Both the position numbers and the translations under genes were made by a program. A DNA stretch of 64,000 nt from a virus (Duplodnaviria; Heunggongvirae; Uroviricota; Caudoviricetes), in the IMG/VR virus record IMGVR_UViG_3300042154_004306; one strand, written 5' to 3'. Positions 9,508 through 47,216 of this stretch are shown here, piece after piece (the stretch's first letter is position 1; each line of letters begins with the position of its first letter). Under the pieces are notes generated by a model. It ran no database searches. It saw nothing but the letters and a program-made list of their open reading frames with translations, and was not told the origin of the DNA.

Positions 9508-10248
9508 ATGAGTGGAGTATTCACAAAAGAAAAAAAGGCACAAATCAAAAGTGAGCTTGAGGATCTGCTGAAAAATTATTCAGGAGGACCTACTCCAGAA
9601 GAGGACAATATTGATGAACAGCTTGCTGAGATCGCTGCTGCTCCCCCGTTAGACTTCATTGAAATGAATTCCGAATTTGAGAAAAAGGCCAGGGACATAA
9701 CCGGCTCAATGCTCAAATTCTATGTTGATCTTGGCGTCATCGAAAAGCACGACTATATCAAACAAAAACAGATGCTTGATAACTCAAGCATTCAAAATAT
9801 TTTCTTTCAGCTAAAAACAATCCGAATGGCAATTGAAAAAATTGCAGAGGAGATAAACCAAGGCAATACTCATCCCAGACTATTTGAGGTATTTGGGCAA
9901 CTACAAGATAAATTAACAACGGTCGTTAAGACTCAAGCGAATTACATGCTATTCCTAGAGGATACCTATCGTAAGATGAATCAGGAAATCACTCAACGCG
10001 ACACAAATCCAGAATCATCTCAACGAGCCCTACCGACGAGCACAACCGATTATTACATAACAGCCGGCACAAAAAATCTAATGAAAGAGATTGACGCAAT
10101 CGAGGTTGAGGAGGACTTGTCTGACACCAGACACTTAACTCACCCATCCAAAAAAGTAGAAGTTATGGTTGCACGCGGAATTTCAAACGCTGTGATACAA
10201 GATGATGATACAACCGACTTCTTAGATGACGTTAACTCATTAATATGA
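9508..10248 (+). CDS. Terminase small subunit (T4 gp16-like)
   Basis: HPRLFEVFGQL motif; directly upstream of terL. ATG at 9508 preferred as start. Confidence 0.7.
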   Translation: MSGVFTKEKKAQIKSELEDLLKNYSGGPTPEEDNIDEQLAEIAAAPPLDFIEMNSEFEKKARDITGSMLKFYVDLGVIEKHDYIKQKQMLDNSSIQNIFFQLKTIRMAIEKIAEEINQGNTHPRLFEVFGQLQDKLTTVVKTQANYMLFLEDTYRKMNQEITQRDTNPESSQRALPTSTTDYYITAGTKNLMKEIDAIEVEEDLSDTRHLTHPSKKVEVMVARGISNAVIQDDDTTDFLDDVNSLI

Positions 10249-12197
10249 GAGACTTTATAGCAAACAGCGGAGGTCGAACCCAAATGAAACTCTCCAATCT
10301 AGATCAGGAGAACAGTGCAATTTGGACGACAGAGAAGGTTCAAAAACTTCTCGATGACTTTGAGAATGGTATGATTGATATTAAGACCATTAAAAACTCG
10401 CCATTCAAAGATAATGACCCAGTGTGGAAGAAGGCAAATATCGTTTTCGAGTACACACCGGAAGAGCTTGAAGAGATTAAGCGTTGCAAGCACGATCCCG
10501 TTTACTTCGCGTCAAACTACGCTCAAGTAATGACAGAGGATGGAATCCAACAAATCACACTAAGAGATTACCAAGAAGAGATTATCAGGTCTTTCAAGAA
10601 TAGCCGATTCAATTGCCTAATGGCATCACGACAGATTGGTAAGACCGTAATGTCAGGAGTGTTCATTGCATGGTACCTGATATTCCATACTGATAAAAAC
10701 GTATTAGCGGTTGCTAACGTTGCCTCAACCACTAAAGAGGTATTGGACAAGATCAAATCGGTGTTGGAGAACCTACCGTTCTTTCTTAAACCGGGTTGCA
10801 TTTCAAATAACGTAATGTCGCTTAAGTTCGATAACGGCTGTCGTTTAATTGGTCGTACCACCACCAAAAATACCGGTATCGGTTTTACGATTCACGTACT
10901 GTACATTGATGAGTTCGCTCACATTAACCCATCTTACCTAGACTTCTTTTATCGAGCGATCTATCCTACTATTTCAGCCTCGACCAATTCAAAGGTAATC
11001 ATAACCTCAACCCCGAATGGAATGAACCGATTCTATGATATCTACATGGATGCAATCAACAGCCTAAATACATACGTGCCGTTGAGAGTTGACTGGTGGC
11101 AGGTTCCAGGCAGAGATGAGGAATGGAAGAAGATGACGATTGCCAACTTAGGTTCTGAGGAAGACTTTAATCAGGAATATGGACTTCAGTTCTTTTCATC
11201 AGATAAGTTACTGCTGCCTTCAAAAGACTTAAAAAAGGTCTTTTCATTCCGCACTACATACGAGGTCCCAGAATGGGCTCAAACTCCAGAGAATTTAGAC
11301 CTATTAGCCGGCCTAGTAGTTCATCCAAACTTCAACAAATTCACACCTGATGATATTAAAAACGATGGCAACACTTACGTATTCTCAATAGATACCGCAT
11401 CAGGCGTTGGCCGTGACTATTCGGTCATTAATATTTTTAAATTCACAGCTTTACCCCTTAAGATGCTAGAACAAGTGAAAGACTTCATCAAGAATGAGGG
11501 AGACTTTTTTGGACTTGTTCAGGTCGCTTCTTTTAGAAGCAATACAAAGGATATCAACGAGTTCAGCAATGTTCTTGAGTACTTGACGTATAAAGTGTTC
11601 AATCCAGAAAAAGTTAGGCTCTTAATTGAGCTTGACCATAAGGGCGATTATGTAATGGACAAAATTCAACAGAATGAGCTCTTTTGGCCCGGTCAATTAA
11701 TACATTCAAAACACATGACCTCTTCTACTAATTGGAAGCCTGGATTAAAGATGACTGAGTCTAATAAGACTAAGTATTGCGAGCGCTTCAAGTACTTGAC
11801 GGCAGTTAATAAAATTCTGCCTAATGAGTTTAAAACTGTGCATGAGCTTGGATCTTTCGGTAAAGCAGGTAACGGTACATATCGAAGTCAAAACGGCAAT
11901 GATGATTTGGCAATGACATGCGTATCAACCGCGGCCTTTTTTGAATCACCTAATTTTTGGGAGATAGTAAATGACGAATTGGATAGACTTGAATCAGAGT
12001 ACCTTCAAAAAGTCTATGCTCAGTTCCTGGGAGAGGCATACGTTGGCCATGATTTAGGATACAACCATGAAACGCTAAGAGACCTAAATCGTACGCCGGA
12101 AATAAAAAGGCCTGGAGCAACAAAACGATTCGACGAAAATGCGGTTGATGAGTACAAGAGACTACTTGGCCATTTTTACGGAAACAATACTCAATAA
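10245..12197 (+). CDS. terL: Terminase large subunit (T4 gp17-like)
   Basis: LRDYQ, ASRQIGKT (Walker A), LYIDEFAH (Walker B), ITSTPNG, SIDTASGVGRDYS, NDDLAM. Confidence 0.95.
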   Translation: MRDFIANSGGRTQMKLSNLDQENSAIWTTEKVQKLLDDFENGMIDIKTIKNSPFKDNDPVWKKANIVFEYTPEELEEIKRCKHDPVYFASNYAQVMTEDGIQQITLRDYQEEIIRSFKNSRFNCLMASRQIGKTVMSGVFIAWYLIFHTDKNVLAVANVASTTKEVLDKIKSVLENLPFFLKPGCISNNVMSLKFDNGCRLIGRTTTKNTGIGFTIHVLYIDEFAHINPSYLDFFYRAIYPTISASTNSKVIITSTPNGMNRFYDIYMDAINSLNTYVPLRVDWWQVPGRDEEWKKMTIANLGSEEDFNQEYGLQFFSSDKLLLPSKDLKKVFSFRTTYEVPEWAQTPENLDLLAGLVVHPNFNKFTPDDIKNDGNTYVFSIDTASGVGRDYSVINIFKFTALPLKMLEQVKDFIKNEGDFFGLVQVASFRSNTKDINEFSNVLEYLTYKVFNPEKVRLLIELDHKGDYVMDKIQQNELFWPGQLIHSKHMTSSTNWKPGLKMTESNKTKYCERFKYLTAVNKILPNEFKTVHELGSFGKAGNGTYRSQNGNDDLAMTCVSTAAFFESPNFWEIVNDELDRLESEYLQKVYAQFLGEAYVGHDLGYNHETLRDLNRTPEIKRPGATKRFDENAVDEYKRLLGHFYGNNTQ

Positions 12198-31060: not shown

Positions 31061-31249
31061 ATGTTAATCGTAAATACAAAGGACAATGGATCATTAGACA
31101 GAGCCCTAAAGGTACTAAAAAGAAAATTTGAACAGACTGGAACAGTTATAGAACTTCGCTCACGTAAGGAGTTCACAAAACCTAGCGTCAAACGCAGAGA
31201 AGAGATGATTGATGCAAAGTATCGCCAAACCTTTATCAAGAATGATTAA
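31061..31249 (+). CDS. rpsU: Ribosomal protein bS21
   Basis: SLDRALKVLKRKF..TG...ELRSRKEFTKPSVKRR...AKY (Bacteroidota-type). Confidence 0.93.
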   Translation: MLIVNTKDNGSLDRALKVLKRKFEQTGTVIELRSRKEFTKPSVKRREEMIDAKYRQTFIKND

Positions 31250-37625: not shown

Positions 37626-38066
37626 TTAGCGTTGAGTTCTTGACGGACGTAACGTAATTTTCTTTCCAGGTCTTGAATATTCGACTCTGCGAACTGCCTT
37701 ATCTACCATTTCATTGTCTGGAATCTCATTATCCTTTGCGAACATTTCTTTTTTATTCATTTCCGAAACTTCATAAGATTTCCGTAATGAGTCAGCCTCG
37801 TCCGCGAAGTCCTGCGCAAGGTCCTCGCTAGCAGTATCGTTTATCTCAACCGTTAGGTCGTCCAATAGGTCCCTAACTCTAGTTGAGGTCTCGTATTTTT
37901 CAGAGTATGGATCGATCTCGGTTGGATTTTGCATGTATTGATTAGCAAGTTTAATTAACTCCTTTGCCATGGTGTGATAGAAACGATCTGATGTTAGGTC
38001 AGGTTTTTGATGAAAGTCATCAAACGCTTCTTCAAAGCTTTCAAATAGGGCAATGTAATTTTTCAT
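37626..38066 (-). CDS. Tag-bearing late protein
   Basis: MKNYIALFESF; late promoter at 38093-38100. Confidence 0.6.
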   Translation of the reverse strand: MKNYIALFESFEEAFDDFHQKPDLTSDRFYHTMAKELIKLANQYMQNPTEIDPYSEKYETSTRVRDLLDDLTVEINDTASEDLAQDFADEADSLRKSYEVSEMNKKEMFAKDNEIPDNEMVDKAVRRVEYSRPGKKITLRPSRTQR

Positions 38067-38103
38067 TGATATTTGGTATAATTTTAGTAAAGTTATTTAT
38101 CTT

Positions 38104-39003
38104 ATGAAAAACATACATTTAATAGCAACAGATAAACCAAGTAGGTTATCCATTTTAAATAGCGGTAAATTAAACTTTGGTGCAGAAATAATGAGTTCAT
38201 CTAACTCTAGACCACAAAATTTGTACATCACTAATGATGAAGAAATTAAAGAAGGTGATTATAGTTTTTATCCTCCTTTTGGAGTAAGCAAAAATATAAT
38301 TATTGATGGAGAATTAGTTTTTCACATAGAAGCTAAAAATGGTAAAGGATTTTTTACTCAAAGAACTTATCAAACTTTAGACAGAAATAAAAAAATAATC
38401 CTAACAACAGACCAAGAGTTAATCAAAGATTGTGTACAACCTATTGATGATGAGTTTTTAGAATGGTTTGTAGAGAATCCAAGTTGTGAGGAGGTTGAGA
38501 TAGAAAATTGGTACAACAAATACTTATCTTGTTGTAGGTCAAAAGAAGAGTGTTATTGTAATAAAAAAAGAATCATTATTCCACAAGAAGAACATCCTAA
38601 TCAGATTAAGTGTTATTGTGGTCATACAACAACTTGTGATTGTAGTCCATTAGAAGAACCTAAACAATTTACTCCTGAAATGTTAGTAGATTTAAAACAG
38701 GGTTTAGATAACGCTATACAAAAAAGTAATCCACTGTTTCCAAACTATAACTTTTTAAATAAAAAAGAAGAACCTAAACAAGAAACACTTGAAGAAGTTG
38801 AAAAAGTTGCAAAACTAAAATATGGAGCTACTATATATGGTTTAGAAAGGGTAAATGCTTTTAAAGCAGGTTACAAATTAGCACAAGAAAGAAGTTATAG
38901 TGAGGAAGAAGTCTATCACATACTTGTTGAACATACTGCATTTTTATTTCAAGGTGGTAAATCAACATTATCAGAATGGTTTGAACAATTTAAAAAGAAA
39001 TAA
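38104..39003 (+). CDS. Modular array protein 1 (long type)
   Basis: MKNIH..TDKPSR, YITNDEEIKEGD, KIILTTDQ, IDDEFLEWFV.NPSCE, EPKQETLEE, QERSYSEEEV, EQFKKK. Confidence 0.8.
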   Translation: MKNIHLIATDKPSRLSILNSGKLNFGAEIMSSSNSRPQNLYITNDEEIKEGDYSFYPPFGVSKNIIIDGELVFHIEAKNGKGFFTQRTYQTLDRNKKIILTTDQELIKDCVQPIDDEFLEWFVENPSCEEVEIENWYNKYLSCCRSKEECYCNKKRIIIPQEEHPNQIKCYCGHTTTCDCSPLEEPKQFTPEMLVDLKQGLDNAIQKSNPLFPNYNFLNKKEEPKQETLEEVEKVAKLKYGATIYGLERVNAFKAGYKLAQERSYSEEEVYHILVEHTAFLFQGGKSTLSEWFEQFKKK

Positions 39004-39004
39004 T

Positions 39005-39217
39005 ATGAAACAAGAAACCACTATTGAAGAAGCAGCTAAAGAATTTGTATTATCTCATGATTTTTCACAACTTACTAATCCAAATCATTTAGCAAATAGG
39101 TGTTTTCAATATGGTGCTAAATGGCAACAAGAAGATATTTTAGAGCTATTAAAAGTAAATGGATATGAAGATGAACCTATATTTGATTTAATTATTGAAC
39201 AATTTAAAAAGAAATAA
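39005..39217 (+). CDS. Modular array protein 2 (short type)
   Basis: MKQETTIEEAA...GAKWQQE...EQFKKK; ATG directly after repeat. Confidence 0.75.
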   Translation: MKQETTIEEAAKEFVLSHDFSQLTNPNHLANRCFQYGAKWQQEDILELLKVNGYEDEPIFDLIIEQFKKK

Positions 39218-39218
39218 G

Positions 39219-39497
39219 ATGAAAGAAACACTTGAAGAAGCTAAATTAAGACAATTATTTAAAAACAGAAGTAATTGCTATGCTGATGCAGATGATGTAG
39301 TTCAAACAATGGATGAGGATTGCTTTATTTCAACTATTAATGAATGGCAACAAGAAAGAAGTTATAGTGAAGAAGAAGTTAGACAAATGCTATTTGATTT
39401 AGGAGATGTTTTATTTAATAATTGTCAAAATGGTATTGAAGAAGGAGAACCTGAAAAATACTTTGATGTAATTATTGAACAATTTAAAAAGAAATAA
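39219..39497 (+). CDS. Modular array protein 3 (short type)
   Basis: MKETLEEA...WQQERSYSEEEV...EQFKKK. Confidence 0.75.
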   Translation: MKETLEEAKLRQLFKNRSNCYADADDVVQTMDEDCFISTINEWQQERSYSEEEVRQMLFDLGDVLFNNCQNGIEEGEPEKYFDVIIEQFKKK

Positions 39498-39498
39498 T

Positions 39499-39738
39499 AT
39501 GAAACAAGAAACACTTGAAGAAGCTGCTGAAAAATATGCAAGAAAACAATGTGATGATATGTATGACAATCAAGGTCTTACAGGTGCATCTTGGGGATGG
39601 GAAACATCATTAGATTTTATTAATTGGATTGATGAAAAAGAAATCCCAAGAGAAGATGGATTATGGATTATGTACTTTAATGGTAAAGACAATTATTTAA
39701 CTACCAAAGAACTATTTGAACAATTTAAAAAGAAATAA
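39499..39738 (+). CDS. Modular array protein 4 (short type)
   Basis: MKQETLEEAA...EQFKKK. Confidence 0.75.
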   Translation: MKQETLEEAAEKYARKQCDDMYDNQGLTGASWGWETSLDFINWIDEKEIPREDGLWIMYFNGKDNYLTTKELFEQFKKK

Positions 39739-40622
39739 TGAAAAACATACACGTATTACCAACAGATAAACCAAGTAGGGTTTATAAACATTTAGGTAGA
39801 GAACTTAAACATACTGTAAGATATTTTGAACAAAAGGGACTTTTATGTATAAACCAACACATCTACATCACTAACGATGAAGAAATTAAAGAAGGAGATT
39901 ACTTTTGGAAACCTGATTGTAATATGATTTTCAAAGCAGAGTACACACCACATAAAGGTTGTGAAAAAATCATCTTAACAACAGACCACGACTTAATCAA
40001 AGATGGTGTTCAAGGTATTGATGATGAGTTTCTTGAATGGTTTGTTAAGAATCCAAGTTGTGAGAGTGTAGAGGTTGACAAAAATTGGAATTACCCATTA
40101 GATAAAAGTTGGGAATACAAAATCATCATTCCAAAAGAAGAACCTACAGAAAATTGTGAAAATTGTAAGCAACCTATTAGTAAATATGGGTGTGCTTGTG
40201 GTAAACAAATAGAAGAACCTAAACAAGAAAATTGTTGTACACCTATTGGTCAGATTAAAAGGTATGTTGATTGTATAGGATGTGATAGAAAACCTAAACA
40301 AGAAGAAAATGAAATTATTGATATTTCAGACCATGATGGGATAGGTAATGCGGTAGACAATCTTAATAATGAACCACCACAAGAAACACTTGAAGAAGCT
40401 GCATATAGATTATCAATTGAAAAATTTGAACCTAAACATACAGCTTTTATGTTAGGAGTAATTGAAGGTGCTAAATGGCAAGCTGAGAGAATGTATAGTG
40501 AGGAAGATTTAAGAGAAGCATTTAAACAATCAAGACAAGCAAAAATATTTAAAGAAGGTATGCCACCTGTTTGGGAATCTTTTGAAGATTACATCAACTC
40601 ACTAAACAAACAAGACAAATGA
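39738..40622 (+). CDS. Modular array protein 5 (long type)
   Basis: Same N-terminal blocks, several Cys-rich inserts between EEPKQE linkers, EGAKWQAERMYSEE. Confidence 0.8.
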   Translation: MKNIHVLPTDKPSRVYKHLGRELKHTVRYFEQKGLLCINQHIYITNDEEIKEGDYFWKPDCNMIFKAEYTPHKGCEKIILTTDHDLIKDGVQGIDDEFLEWFVKNPSCESVEVDKNWNYPLDKSWEYKIIIPKEEPTENCENCKQPISKYGCACGKQIEEPKQENCCTPIGQIKRYVDCIGCDRKPKQEENEIIDISDHDGIGNAVDNLNNEPPQETLEEAAYRLSIEKFEPKHTAFMLGVIEGAKWQAERMYSEEDLREAFKQSRQAKIFKEGMPPVWESFEDYINSLNKQDK

Positions 40623-41332
40623 AAAACATACACCAAATAAATGACAATATCTACATCACTAATGATGAAGAAATTAAAGAAGGAGATTACTTTTGGAAAC
40701 CCGATTGTAATATGATTTTCAAAGCAGAGTACACACCACATAAAGGTTGTGAAAAAGTCATATTGACAACAGACCAAGACTTAATCAAAGATGGTGTACA
40801 AAGTATTGACGATGGGTTCTTAGAATGGTTTGTTAAGAATCCAAGTTGTGAGAGTGTTGAGGTTGGGTATGGATGGATTAGACTAACTGAAACTGACAAT
40901 GAAGGATATTGGATTTCTATTCCCGATAATCAATTTGAAATGCAACAAGCAGAACCTAAACAAGAAACACTTGAAGAAGCTGCTAAAAATGCTTACAAAA
41001 AACATTCAGTTAAAGATGATGCACTTTCATTAAATGAACAAATACAAAGAAGTGGAGGATTTATTGTAGGTTTTAAAGAAGGCATGATGGAAGGTGCTAA
41101 ATGGCAATCTGAAAGAATTGGTTTAATGGAAATTGAATTAAACCACACAAAAACACTTTTAGCGAGTTGTGAAAAAGCATTAGAAAATAGAGATAATCAA
41201 GCTAAAAGAATGTATAGTGAGGAAGAAGTTATTGAACTTTTGAACAAAAGAGAAGATTGTATTAATCAAACATCATCTATATTTGATTATACAAGTACAA
41301 AAGAATGGTTTGAACAATTTAAAAAGAAATAA
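40619..41332 (+). CDS. Modular array protein 6 (long type)
   Basis: N-terminus nearly identical to protein 5; EPKQETLEEAA, EGAKWQ, RMYSEEEV, EQFKKK. Confidence 0.8.
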   Translation: MKNIHQINDNIYITNDEEIKEGDYFWKPDCNMIFKAEYTPHKGCEKVILTTDQDLIKDGVQSIDDGFLEWFVKNPSCESVEVGYGWIRLTETDNEGYWISIPDNQFEMQQAEPKQETLEEAAKNAYKKHSVKDDALSLNEQIQRSGGFIVGFKEGMMEGAKWQSERIGLMEIELNHTKTLLASCEKALENRDNQAKRMYSEEEVIELLNKREDCINQTSSIFDYTSTKEWFEQFKKK

Positions 41333-41333
41333 C

Positions 41334-41687
41334 ATGAGTATAGATCTAACAAATCTTTGTTACTATGATAAGAGAAATCCTGATTGTTCAGCAGATGATG
41401 AAGATATAGAATACCACAAAAGGAGTTTACTTAAAAAGAATAAAACTTGTAGTTGTGATAATTGTTTTTATGGTAGAAGTGATTTAACAGAACAACTTAT
41501 TTTGCAACAAGAAATAAGTTATAGTGAGGAAGAAGTAAGACAAGCTATCAAAAAAGCTAGAGATATTTCAGACGGAAAATATTGTTTTGATGCTGAAGAT
41601 ATTAGTGGGTGCACTGAAGTTTGTACTTATGATTGGAAATTTAATTTATCAGAAGATTCAATTATTGAACAATTTAAAAAGAAATAA
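41334..41687 (+). CDS. Modular array protein 7
   Basis: Cys-rich N-terminus (CSCDNC), QQEISYSEEEV, EQFKKK. Confidence 0.75.
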   Translation: MSIDLTNLCYYDKRNPDCSADDEDIEYHKRSLLKKNKTCSCDNCFYGRSDLTEQLILQQEISYSEEEVRQAIKKARDISDGKYCFDAEDISGCTEVCTYDWKFNLSEDSIIEQFKKK

Positions 41688-41690
41688 AAT

Positions 41691-42521
41691 ATGAAACCTA
41701 ATTCAGACAAGCCTCCGCCAGAAGGTCCGGAATGCAGAAGAGTTTACGAAGGAATTTCGGAATTCTATCAAAATCGAACAATTACACAATTTGAAGTATT
41801 GGGAGGCCGTTTCCTAAAAAGAGCTCCTGATCTTGAAGTTCAGCCTGTCGTGCCCACTCGTGTGATTGGTGGTGGAGTTAAGGGCAAATTCATTTGGCTG
41901 GAGCTTAGTGACGAGACCTGTCTCTGGATAACGCTGGGGATGAGCGGCCATTGGTCAACTGATAAACTGCAACACAGTCACTTTCGAATTGGATTTGAGG
42001 ATGACTCTTCGCTTTACTTTGTCGATCAACGTAGATTTGGAACCTTGAAATTCACAAGGCTTGCGGAGTTACCAAAGAAATTATCAAGCTTGGGGCTTGA
42101 CATGCTGAACGACCGGACCGCTAGCATGTACGATTTTATTAGAAGGGTTGAACTACCGAAGGCTCAAAAGAAAACCGTTGCTGAAGCGCTAATGGATCAG
42201 TCTCTCTTTGCTGGAGTCGGTAACTACATCAAATGTGAAATGTTATATCGTAGTAGAATATCGCCGTACCGACTTGTAAAAGACCTAACTCAGGATGAGA
42301 TTTGCCAACTTTGGAATTGGGGAAAACTGATCATGAGAGCCTCATACGAACAGGGTGGAGCCAGTATCCGGAACTATCGCCAAGTAACCGGTGAGTCCGG
42401 CCTTTTTACATTTGAATTTGAAGTTTACGCTCAAAAACACGATCCGCTTGGAAATCAAGTGGTTAGGGAAGAAACGCCAGACGGTCGCACAACTCACTGG
42501 GTTCCGGAACTACAATCATAG
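41691..42521 (+). CDS. Fpg/Nei DNA glycosylase with anomalous N-terminal extension
   Basis: PEGPE, KGKFIW, LGMSG, DQRRFG, LMDQ..FAGVGNY, GRTTHW. Confidence 0.9.
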   Translation: MKPNSDKPPPEGPECRRVYEGISEFYQNRTITQFEVLGGRFLKRAPDLEVQPVVPTRVIGGGVKGKFIWLELSDETCLWITLGMSGHWSTDKLQHSHFRIGFEDDSSLYFVDQRRFGTLKFTRLAELPKKLSSLGLDMLNDRTASMYDFIRRVELPKAQKKTVAEALMDQSLFAGVGNYIKCEMLYRSRISPYRLVKDLTQDEICQLWNWGKLIMRASYEQGGASIRNYRQVTGESGLFTFEFEVYAQKHDPLGNQVVREETPDGRTTHWVPELQS

Positions 42522-42922: not shown

Positions 42923-43381
42923 ATGAATACAATGGAAAATAGAATACAAATAAACGGGGACTGGTATATTAAGGAACCAGTAGATGCACAGCCAAAAGAA
43001 TTAGATTTAGTATACACAGAAATGTGTTCGTATGAAGTATTGGATTATTGCTTTGAAGCAACAAGACGTTTTAAAGATTATGATAAATCTGAGTTCTATG
43101 AGGACACTATCGATATTAAGGTTACTGATAAACGAACAAAATCTTGGAAAATACACAATTGGGATAATGTTGCGTGGTTTCGTGGAGTTTTTGATAATGA
43201 TAAAAGAGCAATAAATGATGCGTTAGCAGTAATGGGTACGTATGAGGTTATGGAGTTAACTCAATTTATTGGACACTTAATAAAAATTGGTTGGATTAAG
43301 TATTACAATTGCGAAAATATTATTATTAAAAAAACCAAAACCTTTGAAACAAATCATAGAATACCTTTTGAAGGTTGTTAA
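42923..43381 (+). CDS. Hypothetical protein (AT-rich island 2)
   Basis: ORF with A-rich leader. Confidence 0.6.
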   Translation: MNTMENRIQINGDWYIKEPVDAQPKELDLVYTEMCSYEVLDYCFEATRRFKDYDKSEFYEDTIDIKVTDKRTKSWKIHNWDNVAWFRGVFDNDKRAINDALAVMGTYEVMELTQFIGHLIKIGWIKYYNCENIIIKKTKTFETNHRIPFEGC

Positions 43382-43539
43382 AATTTAAAAATAAAACGAA
43401 TATGAAATATCTAATAGTATTAAGTGTAGTAGTGGCTATAACAGTTTACTTACTCATCAGTAAGAATACAAAACAACATAACAAACATTAAATACACCTT
43501 GTTATACACAGTACGGTTTATTAACTAAAAAATATAAAT

Positions 43540-43809
43540 ATGAAACTAATAATTAATAACAAAATCTTCATTGGGAGATACAACGAAAATGGTAGATTAC
43601 AAATACAATTGGATGATGAAAATGATGTTAAATTTTTCAAAAACTGGGAAGATAAATGTAAAACTTCCAATAGTAAGACGGATTATGTAGATAATATAGA
43701 ATTTCACAAAATAACTGAACGTGGATTTTTGAAAAATTGTTTTCCTTTACTAAGTATAAATGAAGATTTTGTTACACTCCACTATGATTTATATGATGTA
43801 GTATCGTAG
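43540..43809 (+). CDS. Hypothetical cassette-borne protein
   Basis: Single ORF bounded by complementary core sites. Confidence 0.6.
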   Translation: MKLIINNKIFIGRYNENGRLQIQLDDENDVKFFKNWEDKCKTSNSKTDYVDNIEFHKITERGFLKNCFPLLSINEDFVTLHYDLYDVVS

Positions 43810-43815
43810 TATTGT

Positions 43816-43947
43816 GTATAACGTTTTGCAGATACCCAAAGGAGGGGATTACGAAGCACAAAATTTAAAATAACCACAAATGTTTAACCGAAGCAAAAAT
43901 GTTCATATAACCACTAAAACCCCTCTTTTGCTTATGTGCTGTTATCG
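43816..43947 (+). mobile_element. attC-like recombination site
   Basis: GTATAAC ... GTTATCG ends; imperfect inverted repeat ATAACgttttGCAgATAcccAAAgGAGGGG versus CCCCTCtTTTgctTATgTGCtGTTAT. Confidence 0.65.
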
Positions 43948-43995
43948 GTAGGGCTTCTCACAAAACTTAAATAAAATGACAAAATTAGAACAACT

Positions 43996-44178
43996 ATGAA
44001 ATTAAAACGATACATAAATCGAACATGGTCCGATGATTTTAAACAAATAAACATCACCCCAACACTTTATTTTACTAAAAGTAAACTTACATCATGTGAA
44101 TATGTGGTAAATTATATTATTAGTATTAATTTCTTAATATGGGATGTGGGGGTGATAATAACTAAACTGGTTAGATAA
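43996..44178 (+). CDS. Small hypothetical protein
   Basis: ORF track; island context. Confidence 0.5.
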   Translation: MKLKRYINRTWSDDFKQINITPTLYFTKSKLTSCEYVVNYIISINFLIWDVGVIITKLVR

Positions 44179-44205
44179 CATACAACAATAAAACAATAGA
44201 AAGTT

Positions 44206-44781
44206 ATGAATAAAGAACAACAAGAATTATTGGGTGAGGCTTATAAGAATTATTATAACTATATGAGGGATGATAGACAATGGGAATTAGATAAAGAAGA
44301 ATTCATCAACAAATGTAAAACTGAACCTAAGTTCTCTGAAAAGTGGGGATTAAAGATTGAAGAACGAGAGTTGAGTTTGGAAGATAGAAAAATACATATG
44401 TCCAAATACTCCAATGATAGAATTTACCCAGATTGGGATGAAAAATTCTTAAGCGAAAAAAGCATCCCAACCAAACTAATCACAATAACATACAAAAAAA
44501 CTACAATAGAAGTTATGAATAAAGTAAATGAAGCCGGATATAATGAAGCACCCAAATTTGGTCCTTCACAAAACAATCCACCGTATATCTCAGACGATTT
44601 CCAAATTGGTCCTAATGGTGCCTATGAACACAATGAAATAGTTCATATACAACAACAGTTAATCGATTTGTTATACTCACAGGTAATAGACTTATCAATG
44701 ATGTCTAAAATTGAATTAGGTGATGATGTCATTGCTGAGGTTAAACGATTAAAATCTATTATAGATGAAAAGACTACTTAG
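44206..44781 (+). CDS. Chimeric protein built from thyA-like segments and the PYISDDFQIGP module
   Basis: EEFINKCKT..KFSEKWG and RELSLEDR..IP shared with the thyA C-terminal part. Confidence 0.65.
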   Translation: MNKEQQELLGEAYKNYYNYMRDDRQWELDKEEFINKCKTEPKFSEKWGLKIEERELSLEDRKIHMSKYSNDRIYPDWDEKFLSEKSIPTKLITITYKKTTIEVMNKVNEAGYNEAPKFGPSQNNPPYISDDFQIGPNGAYEHNEIVHIQQQLIDLLYSQVIDLSMMSKIELGDDVIAEVKRLKSIIDEKTT

Positions 44782-44932
44782 AATTATTATTGGACTTCCG
44801 CTATGTCCAGTTCCGATGTTTTTAGGAACTTGGATATGGCTATTTTCAAACACTAAAGATTCATGGATAGAGAGTATTGGGTATCTTACTTGGAATTTAG
44901 CATCGGGAAATTGGGATAAATTACCAGAATAA
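44765..44932 (+). CDS. Small membrane protein (not in ORF track)
   Basis: MKRLLRIIIGLPLCPVPMFLGTWIWLF..., 55 aa, overlaps the previous stop. Confidence 0.5.
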   Translation: MKRLLRIIIGLPLCPVPMFLGTWIWLFSNTKDSWIESIGYLTWNLASGNWDKLPE

Positions 44933-44956
44933 AAACAATTAAAATAAAAAATAAAC

Positions 44957-45187
44957 ATGGCAGATTTTTCAAAACAATGGTGTGAAATTAATGACCCAGG
45001 TATGTCTGGTGACTTTGACATTTTAGAAGAGGCAAATAATATTAAACCTAATCATTATATTCCTATGATATGTGAAGGATATGGTTTTGTAGCAATAGGC
45101 AAAGATGAGCATGATGATATTATATTAGCATTTAAAGATAATGAAGGTAATATTAAATGGGAAACTTATAACAGCGTTATTAAATAA
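44957..45187 (+). CDS. Hypothetical protein
   Basis: MADFSKQWC...ICEGYG. Confidence 0.65.
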   Translation: MADFSKQWCEINDPGMSGDFDILEEANNIKPNHYIPMICEGYGFVAIGKDEHDDIILAFKDNEGNIKWETYNSVIK

Positions 45188-45204
45188 AACAAAAATAATT
45201 ACAA

Positions 45205-45519
45205 ATGAATAATCTAGATAAGCAATATACAGACCTACTTCAAGACATACTTGATAATGGATTTAAGAAACAAGACAGAACAGGTACAGGAACAATCTCA
45301 GTATTTGGTAGACAAATACGTCATAAAATGAGCGACGGCTTTCCATTACTCACAACTAAAAAGATGGCTTGGAAATCAGTGGTAACTGAACTGTTATGGT
45401 TTTTAAAAGGCCGAAGTGACTTAAAGTACTTACTTGACAATGATTGCAACATCTGGACTGGGGACGGCTATCAAGCATATCTTAAAGAATGTGAAAAATA
45501 TAAGGAAGAAGATAAGTAA
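45205..45519 (+). CDS. thyA: Thymidylate synthase, N-terminal fragment
   Basis: [31 protein letters not shown]; ends with TAA. Confidence 0.9.
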
Positions 45520-45559
45520 TTTTTATTAGCATCGCCAAAGATATATAAAATAAAAATCT

Positions 45560-46258
45560 ATGGAAAAATACATTCTTTATCTTAAAACTTCCCCTCTTGG
45601 TCTTAAATACCTAGGAAAAACTACCAAGGATCCTTACAAATACATAGGTAGCGGAAAAATATGGCTAAGGCACCTAAAAAAACACGAGATTTCAACAGAT
45701 GAGATAAAAACAGAAATTTTGTTTGAAACTGACAATCTGGAAGAATTTAAAATAAAGTCTAAAGAAATTTCAATAAAATTAAACATTGTTGAATCCGAAG
45801 AATTTGCCAATCTTAAAGTAGAGGAAGGAGATGGTGGGGATACTTCAAAGTATATAAATTATGATAACCCAGTGTTTCATAAAAAAGGAAGAGCCGATCA
45901 TTTAAACGGGGTTGGTTTAACTGAGGAGGAAAGAAAGAAAATCTTTATGGAAAGATCTAAACTTATAGATTATTCAAATCCAGAAAGAATAAGAAAAATA
46001 AAAGATAATACAGATTGGAAGAAATTAATTGAAAATAGACATACAGATTATTCTAAATTTTTAAATATAGTACACGAAAAAAATAAAAAACCTGTTTTAC
46101 AGCTTGATTTGGAAGGTAACATTATTATGGAACACAAATCAGCGGCAGACGCAGTTAGATACCTTAACGCTAAAAAATATAGCTCTAGTACAATAACTAA
46201 TTGTTGTAAAGGAAAGGGTGAAACTGCGTTAGGATACAAATGGAAATATAAAAAATAA
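45560..46258 (+). CDS. GIY-YIG homing endonuclease with NUMOD1-like C-terminus
   Basis: LYLK...KYLGKT..DPYKYIGSG, FANL; KPVLQLDLEG..SAADA..ITNCCKG...GYKWKY. Confidence 0.85.
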   Translation: MEKYILYLKTSPLGLKYLGKTTKDPYKYIGSGKIWLRHLKKHEISTDEIKTEILFETDNLEEFKIKSKEISIKLNIVESEEFANLKVEEGDGGDTSKYINYDNPVFHKKGRADHLNGVGLTEEERKKIFMERSKLIDYSNPERIRKIKDNTDWKKLIENRHTDYSKFLNIVHEKNKKPVLQLDLEGNIIMEHKSAADAVRYLNAKKYSSSTITNCCKGKGETALGYKWKYKK

Positions 46259-46262
46259 ACTT

Positions 46263-47216
46263 ATGAATAAAGAACATTTACACCCAGAAGGAAGACCCTA
46301 CACACAAGAAGAATTCATCAACAAAATCAAAACAGATGATGAGTTTGCTAAGAAATGGGGTGATTTAGGTCCGATTTACGGTAAGCAATGGAGAAATTGG
46401 GATATTAAACCTAATATAGAAACTAAATCTTATATTCATAAAGGAGAGACGCACTTTACATTTGATATTAATGAAAGACAGCCAATAGACCAAATCGCAA
46501 ACTCAATCAATCTACTTAAAATAGACCCAGACTCAAGACGTAATAAAGTTAGTGCTTGGAATGTCGGAGAATTGGATGAAATGGTTCTTCCACCTTGCCA
46601 TACAGATTTTCAGTTTTTTACAAGAGAGTTGAGTTTGAAAGAAAGATTGCAAGTCTGGGATAGTAAGTTTGGATTTGCCAATGATGAACAAAAGAATCAA
46701 TTTAACACTGATGTTCATTTAGATACTCACGGAATACCTAAAAGAGCAATCTCATTAATGTGGAATCAAAGATCAGTAGACACAGGATTAGGCTTACCAT
46801 TTAACATTGCTTCTTATGGATTGTTATTAGAGATAATCGCTAAAGAAGTTAACATGGTTCCTGATGAGTTGATTGGTAATTTGGGTGATACACATTTATA
46901 CTCAAACCATATTGAACAAGCAAAGGAGCAGATTGGTAGAGAGTTGAGTTTGGAAGAAAGGTTATCTTTAGTTAAAAATAATGTAATGAGTTTTGATGAA
47001 TTATCCAAAGCAAATTATGATGAATTTTTTAAAAAGAATAATATACCGAACAGAACTAGAGAACCATACCCATTACCAACATTAAAAATTGTGGGTTACC
47101 CTGAAGAATATAAGCATCCCAATGACGAACGATTATTTGAAGAGTTTGACATATCTGACTTTCAACTTGAAAATTATCAATCACACCCAACTATTAAAAT
47201 GCCTTTATCAAACTAA
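46263..47216 (+). CDS. thyA: Thymidylate synthase, C-terminal catalytic fragment
   Basis: GDLGPIYGKQWR, PDSRR, VLPPCH, QRSVDTGLGLPFN, GDTHLYSNH. Confidence 0.92.
   Translation: MNKEHLHPEGRPYTQEEFINKIKTDDEFAKKWGDLGPIYGKQWRNWDIKPNIETKSYIHKGETHFTFDINERQPIDQIANSINLLKIDPDSRRNKVSAWNVGELDEMVLPPCHTDFQFFTRELSLKERLQVWDSKFGFANDEQKNQFNTDVHLDTHGIPKRAISLMWNQRSVDTGLGLPFNIASYGLLLEIIAKEVNMVPDELIGNLGDTHLYSNHIEQAKEQIGRELSLEERLSLVKNNVMSFDELSKANYDEFFKKNNIPNRTREPYPLPTLKIVGYPEEYKHPNDERLFEEFDISDFQLENYQSHPTIKMPLSN

Follow-up and report, generated by a model that had tools for sequence, protein, structure and literature searches.

Short conserved sequences that guide the exchange of phage genes have been described several times. 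Among T4-like phages the PeSL elements, intergenic cassettes of a promoter and a stem-loop terminator that move whole open reading frames (ORFs), provide short dispersed DNA motifs linking the exchange of accessory genes; expression signals are kept intact, no dedicated recombinase is known, and mini-circles have been shown by experiment (PMC2839356, PMC4122927). The linker-sequence model of mosaicism (PMC3029335; recombinase basis in PMC3945230) likewise places junctions at short conserved sequences joined by relaxed homologous recombination, and holds that at most mosaic boundaries no such sequence can be identified. Phage integron cassettes (PMC9892861) and polymorphic-toxin cassettes (PMC3482391) form arrays whose variable units are swapped at repeated sites, and small accessory proteins with mosaic blocks and exchangeable C-terminal parts are known from the lambdoid exo-xis Ea22/DUF551 genes (PMC10834534). 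The origin of many new small phage genes is still an open question, the usual answer, given the rarity of conserved boundary sequences, being wasteful illegitimate recombination. Here we describe an array of seven small genes at positions 38104-41687 of a 64,000-nt stretch (the window) of the tailed phage IMGVR_UViG_3300042154_004306. It belongs to an accessory family of freshwater Bacteroidota phages which, with a probability that we put at about 0.8, diversifies by homologous recombination at some ten kinds of coding block that are homogeneous as DNA. The family appears to offer an ordered, in-frame alternative at the sub-gene level, with thousands of distinct proteins and with array differences between otherwise identical strains.

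By analogy the array seems to work like PeSL or linker shuffling, yet it is not the PeSL system. Its anchors are coding rather than intergenic, are of about ten kinds whose order is fixed, and sit within genes, where they swap sub-gene modules; no terminator-like site was found, and promoter-like matches fell below shuffle level. Unlike the PeSL circles, the window array is known from sequence alone. In contrast to the linker model, roughly 90% of the breakpoints of this one family can be assigned to anchors, and phages of very different genome size have these in common. The available part of the Ea22 account (PMC10834534) describes few variants on one common N-terminus and no ordered, DNA-homogenised anchors, and none of the seven window proteins matched an Ead/Ea22 or DUF551 Pfam domain at E 0.1. 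Compared with integrons, no integrase was seen nearby and the anchors are translated; an attC-like long inverted repeat was neither noticed nor searched for.

An earlier reading of this DNA, made from the sequence only, had proposed seven coupled ORFs sharing blocks in a fixed order, six of them ending in an exact 23-mer. This layout was confirmed, together with the use of differing block subsets by different genes. All seven ORFs lie on the plus strand, the 23-mer count in 100 shuffles was zero, and the ATG after each 23-mer either overlaps the stop or starts 1-3 nt on; ORF5 and ORF6 overlap by 4 nt. The segments between blocks, which we call modules, had been described as unrelated, and most are, the exception being ORF5 and ORF6, which have 229 nt in common at 92% identity, one module included. 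Cysteine is indeed enriched in the modules, only modestly so (2.3% against 1.2% in flanking proteins). The array is a low-GC island (GC 0.26-0.32; genome ca. 0.40). Since the identical array sequence is present in several other assemblies, it is not an assembly artefact.

IMG/VR was searched with exact block patterns, three of which gave at least 120 stretches each and two more 81 and 59; individual loci are referred to below by L numbers. The genes take two forms, a long one with an N-terminal domain and a C-terminal unit and a short one with the C-terminal unit alone, and the block order is violated once in 350 distinct genes. The carriers are diverse, their flanks forming 163 groups when clustered at 70% protein identity. 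ORF5 has homologs in at least 7,994 clusters at 90% identity, nearly all of the 120 listed being singletons, and a profile of the N-terminal domain matched at least 7,335 clusters at 50% identity. Diverged N-terminal domains occur in Bacteroides phage DAC16 and Tenacibaculum phage PTm1, and the cultured Flavobacterium phage Elemovirus carries a short-form gene (QLF85206.1) with modules of its own. In Pfam, PHROG and PADLOC no named family was found for the window proteins, the sole match being a weak one to PHROG 15656 (function unknown), nor did any toxin or immunity family in Pfam or PHROG match them. A literature search, which covered few subscription papers, found no paper describing the family. 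The system is thus real and widespread, and apparently undescribed; having no Pfam model, it makes up a large unannotated share of freshwater viromes.

Strains whose flanks are 99.5-100% identical differ in the array that they have at this locus, the changes of sequence falling at the first block and at the 23-mer. On the left there are 0 mismatches in 700 flanking positions, yet three different first genes follow, with divergence beginning inside or right after the first block. On the right, a strain 99.8% identical over the downstream Fpg gene has no ORF3 between ORF2 and ORF4, and the second half of its ORF4 is different; this chimeric ORF4 is joined to Fpg at the 23-mer, a junction identical in three assemblies that are perhaps not independent samples. 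Alternative array ends were found identically in 3-5 assemblies, some of which may share reads. Differences between close phages, whether insertion, deletion or replacement, end at repeated motifs. In 16 related loci the site has no insert and a 146-aa gene abuts Fpg, as also in closer strains with flanks 91-96% identical; the array is inserted at the exact start of Fpg, 21 nt past the motif that precedes Fpg in the empty strains. L137 has a different array of the same family at the Fpg start. L122 and L464 have at this site a GIY-YIG-like gene (weak matches), judged by its sequence a probable homing endonuclease; in the L122 insert (2014-2735) a T4-late-like promoter motif precedes that gene, and the Fpg start sequence is present a second time. 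Comparison of ORF4 with L022 and L445 fits a 54-nt in-frame deletion between 9-nt repeats. It looks as if ORF4 arose in this way, the direction being our reading of the comparison, and microhomology deletion of this kind may be one route to new modules.

The prediction that modules reassort with breakpoints in the blocks was borne out, and homologous arrays proved not to be collinear. Module identity is bimodal, being either near-identical or at background level. L282 and L314 are near-identical save for the module between ITND and KII, and L217 and L235 have only the PSCE-IIIP module in common. Most window modules recur at 86-98% identity in other phages beside other neighbours: the two modules of ORF3 are separate elsewhere, the first at 98% in L005, where the YSEE block joins it to the module that is last in ORF1, and the second at 90.5% in L112, L217, L239, L338 and L343. 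At the protein level the first two modules form 119 combinations among 131 genes, one allele having 19 partners. Modules have been exchanged between phages of 60 kb and 270 kb. With blocks masked by DNA weight matrices and with stricter filters, 381 of 420 distinct shared-segment ends coincided with a block or the end of a gene, where the null gives 55-72%; when each locus was used once the figure was 78/86 (72% expected, median p 4e-5), and 307 ends were at internal blocks. An initial test with protein-regex masks, which left degenerate blocks unmasked, showed no enrichment (44% against 42-53%) and was set aside.

The blocks are conserved as DNA beyond what the protein requires. Their codon homozygosity in 322 dereplicated genes is 0.85, compared with 0.62 expected from the codon use of the same genes, and conservation at codon positions 1, 2 and 3 is 0.89, 0.93 and 0.86, respectively. 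Rare codons are nearly fixed (56/59, 134/150, 60/69 and 111/119) at places where background use is 12-16%. Between random gene pairs the proportion of matching synonymous codons in blocks is 0.83; the same measure for Fpg is 0.80-0.87 at 94-97% amino-acid identity and 0.51-0.56 at 83-86%. Synonymous sites are therefore unusually conserved, as had been anticipated, and not saturated as in an ordinary paralog family. Judged from the codons, this conservation is not explained by selection on structure, which would leave the fixation of rare codons unaccounted for.

The reading frame is preserved as well. A frame-blind scan of the DNA found 1215 of 1229 block-to-block segments (99%) open and in frame, with a frameshift or stop in 14, and the ratio of nonsynonymous to synonymous polymorphism (pN/pS) in shared modules is 0.24, which indicates purifying selection. 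Of 231 copies of the 23-mer, 210 have an ATG within the next 5 nt; the following gene, as judged by a strict start-motif test, is outside the family in 190 of 227. Among 218 starts behind a 23-mer, 179 have A at -3, which favours initiation in Flavobacterium (PMC6847099), and at least 203 have A at -11 to -13. Since the 23-mer supplies these residues, the gene end would double as a portable start region, which, on the evidence of these positions, is a second reason for its conservation.

The core proposal, that the blocks serve for in-frame exchange both of entire genes and of sub-gene modules, is therefore well supported by both the collinearity and the synonymous-site comparisons. Comparison of the loci shows blocks fixed in order and frame and modules that swap as units, within an array and between unrelated phages; whole genes are gained and lost at the first block and the terminal 23-mer, their products staying in frame under purifying selection. 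We suggest that general recombination proteins of phage or host, of the single-strand annealing or the RecA/UvsX type, would carry out the exchanges during co-infection or replication, and that repeated exchange would homogenise the blocks. The 23-mer would hand the next gene a ready start region, so that insertions leave downstream genes expressed, and new modules would come more rarely from microhomology events. Block lengths of 23-120 nt are compatible with the published minimal pairing lengths (Red-beta 23-27 nt, RecA 31-34 nt; PMC3945230), and an ERF recombinase is annotated in Elemovirus. The term recombinase-free, used in the sequence-only reading, holds insofar as no dedicated recombinase was seen nearby: neighbour clustering and a crude motif test, both confined to neighbours, revealed no recurring recombinase within 2.5 kb of 348 loci. 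It is too strong in that general recombination proteins are presumably needed.

Several points weigh against this interpretation. Exchange at the blocks is deduced from comparison of genomes, not from crosses. All loci were found by exact DNA patterns, which biases the sample towards family members with homogeneous DNA; scoring was restricted to blocks other than the search block of each locus, linkage between blocks being a remaining source of bias. Breakpoints at blocks would also be expected if selection culls chimeras broken inside a structural module, and selection on structure probably adds to the clustering. In the better of two AlphaFold models of the N-terminal domain, one of moderate confidence, the blocks coincide with core strands and a helix; pLDDT (the confidence score of the model) is 63 in this model, with ca. 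76-82 at residues 41-80, and 56 in the other. A single four-gamete set was found at the protein level and none at the DNA level, the scarcity being due to most alleles being singletons. The fetched stretch holds a single family gene at 230 of 295 loci, and the 68 Elemovirus records have one copy each, identical throughout; exchange is thus not fast everywhere. Lastly, the role that we assign to the proteins below is a guess.

The most serious rival, which we nevertheless consider unlikely, is that the blocks are the core of two small domains in a young family, that illegitimate swaps happen anywhere and that those respecting structure survive. The position of the blocks on predicted strands and helix suits it, as do the diverged members in Bacteroides phage DAC16, which keep the core motifs at the protein level only, the resemblance of ORF4 to a microhomology deletion, and the approximately 10% of breakpoints that lie away from blocks. 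It does not lead one to expect third codon positions conserved nearly as well as first positions (0.86 against 0.89), nor rare codons near fixation although the carrier flanks form many unrelated groups, and the number of clusters at 50% identity speaks against a young, vertically inherited family. Quite improbable, in our estimate, is a selfish or near-neutral origin, with blocks as self-propagating landing pads, frames kept open through downstream coupling, and proteins that do little. The patchy presence of the arrays, at a site empty in close strains and holding the probable homing endonuclease in others, would agree with this, and so would the singleton clusters and the location of the genes amid other small variable families; against it stand the pN/pS of the modules, the rarity of frameshifts and stops, and an N-terminal domain conserved out to the phages of Bacteroides and Tenacibaculum.

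That repeats common to co-occurring phages caused mis-joins which mimic swaps is the least probable explanation and may be regarded as very improbable indeed. The evidence for swaps comes from metagenome assemblies throughout, and some Logan contigs end at the 23-mer. The window array is nevertheless the same across assemblies, as are the alternative ends (with the reservation about shared reads), there are double crossovers with new sequence among the swaps, and a cultured phage has a family gene with modules of its own.

Returning to recombination at the blocks, we guess at about even odds that the products are non-structural proteins of host interaction, anti-defence being one option. They might be cytoplasmic, a small beta domain at the N-terminus and a short helical unit at the C-terminus bearing surfaces that vary to suit host strains or defences. 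A PDB sequence search gave no match, and no solved structure stood out in fold searches (best Z 3.1 and 2.0), a result that does not establish a new fold; viral and Atlas fold matches were uncharacterised family members, and an Atlas search with the short ORF3 gave leads below 0.9 only. No named Pfam or PHROG match links the proteins to a known anti-defence inhibitor; the fold searches, with a model of moderate confidence (pLDDT 63), do not speak against such a likeness. It is a rather doubtful further idea that selection keeps the block DNA as a community-wide standard through which unrelated Bacteroidota phages share one module pool; if true, this would amount to an antibody-like repertoire for host interaction or counter-defence without a dedicated recombinase or reverse transcriptase. 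If modules set host range or counter defences, the route of diversification would be comparable in role to diversity-generating retroelements. Since Elemovirus is in culture and carries QLF85206.1, the question of shuffling is directly testable.

Features of the array and its surroundings (window coordinates)
Feature	Position	Strand	Remarks
T4-type terminase	10245-12197		
Phage-encoded ribosomal protein bS21	31061-31249		
Hypothetical 146-aa gene	37626..38066	-	Left flank; adjoins Fpg directly in empty-site relatives
RGTATAAT promoter-like motif	38075..38082	+	21 nt upstream of array; precedes Fpg in empty-site relatives; putative promoter
ORF1	38104..39003	+	299 aa; full architecture: N-terminal domain (MKN, ITND, KII-PSCE, IIIP), EPK linkers, ETLEE, YSEE, EQF
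MKN block	38104..38148	+	Left exchange point; first genes switch here between identically flanked strains
ITND block	38218..38261	+	Further copies 39858-39901, 40646-40689
KII-DDEF-PSCE core block	38390..38507	+	About 120 nt; further copies 39964-40081, 40752-40869
23-mer	38981..39003	+	Gene end and start region of following gene; further copies at 39195, 39475, 39716, 41310, 41665
ORF2	39005..39217	+	70 aa; short form (ETLEE-like, GAKW, EQF); module found again at 96% in L101
ORF3	39219..39497	+	92 aa (ETLEE, YSEE, EQF)
ORF4	39499..39738	+	79 aa; without GAKW and YSE
ORF5	39738..40622	+	294 aa; full architecture; several short Cys-containing modules between EPK linkers; without 23-mer
Segment shared by ORF5 and ORF6	39849..40077	+	229 nt, ITND to PSCE; 92% identical to ORF6 40637-40865; blocks at both ends
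ORF6	40619..41332	+	237 aa; full architecture minus first module
ORF7	41334..41687	+	117 aa; N-terminus unrelated; YSEE, EQF
Last 23-mer	41665..41687	+	Right exchange point; strain 99.8% identical over Fpg has different last gene here
Fpg DNA glycosylase	41691..42521	+	Right flank; 8-residue N-terminal extension ahead of catalytic Pro

The phage contig is 270,359 bp long and carries a T4-type terminase, DNA ligase, guanylate kinase, UvdE and bS21. Large freshwater phages with bS21 are predicted to infect Bacteroidetes, and five clades of such bS21-encoding myoviruses have been published (PMC9723584); the window phage resembles them in its bS21 gene, large genome and T4-type terminase, and probably infects Bacteroidota. 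A scan of GTDB genomes found no relative, and so no prophage link to a host. Two promoter-like motifs, RGTATAAT and ATAAATA, occur repeatedly upstream of genes across the window.

Some homologs (P0005, P0008, P0009, P0018, P0019 and P0040) have a tandemly doubled N-terminal domain, as is expected from unequal exchange between blocks. The most frequent neighbour of family genes, at 54 of 348 loci, is a small phage family with the motif LGFDEPC; one homolog, P0077, bears PF20274. In L137 (752-1651) this family is fused in frame behind the YSEE block, so that the block scaffold can evidently capture whole domains.

The catalytic proline of Fpg normally must be N-terminal. The extension in the window (41691-41717) ends in D-[KE]-P-P immediately ahead of this residue, as it does in L122, L137, L464 and L446; the motif is shared by strains carrying other inserts and by the distant insert-free phage L446, and empty-site strains have the normal start. 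The extended gene is under purifying selection (pN/pS 0.08-0.11), and the extension, going by its sequence, may be a cleaved propeptide.

A second low-GC variable island lies at 42923-47216, between a 117-aa gene and thyA, and its gene content varies in relatives. It includes a member (44206-44781) of a second block-and-module family, found also in L089, L097, L314, L321 and L333, whose motifs EEFINK and ERELSLE occur too inside the thymidylate synthase of the clade of the window phage. The thyA gene itself (45205-47216) is split around a 232-aa ORF (45560-46258) that has no Pfam match and looks by eye like a homing endonuclease; L137 is arranged alike, and the arrangement is possibly that of an intron.

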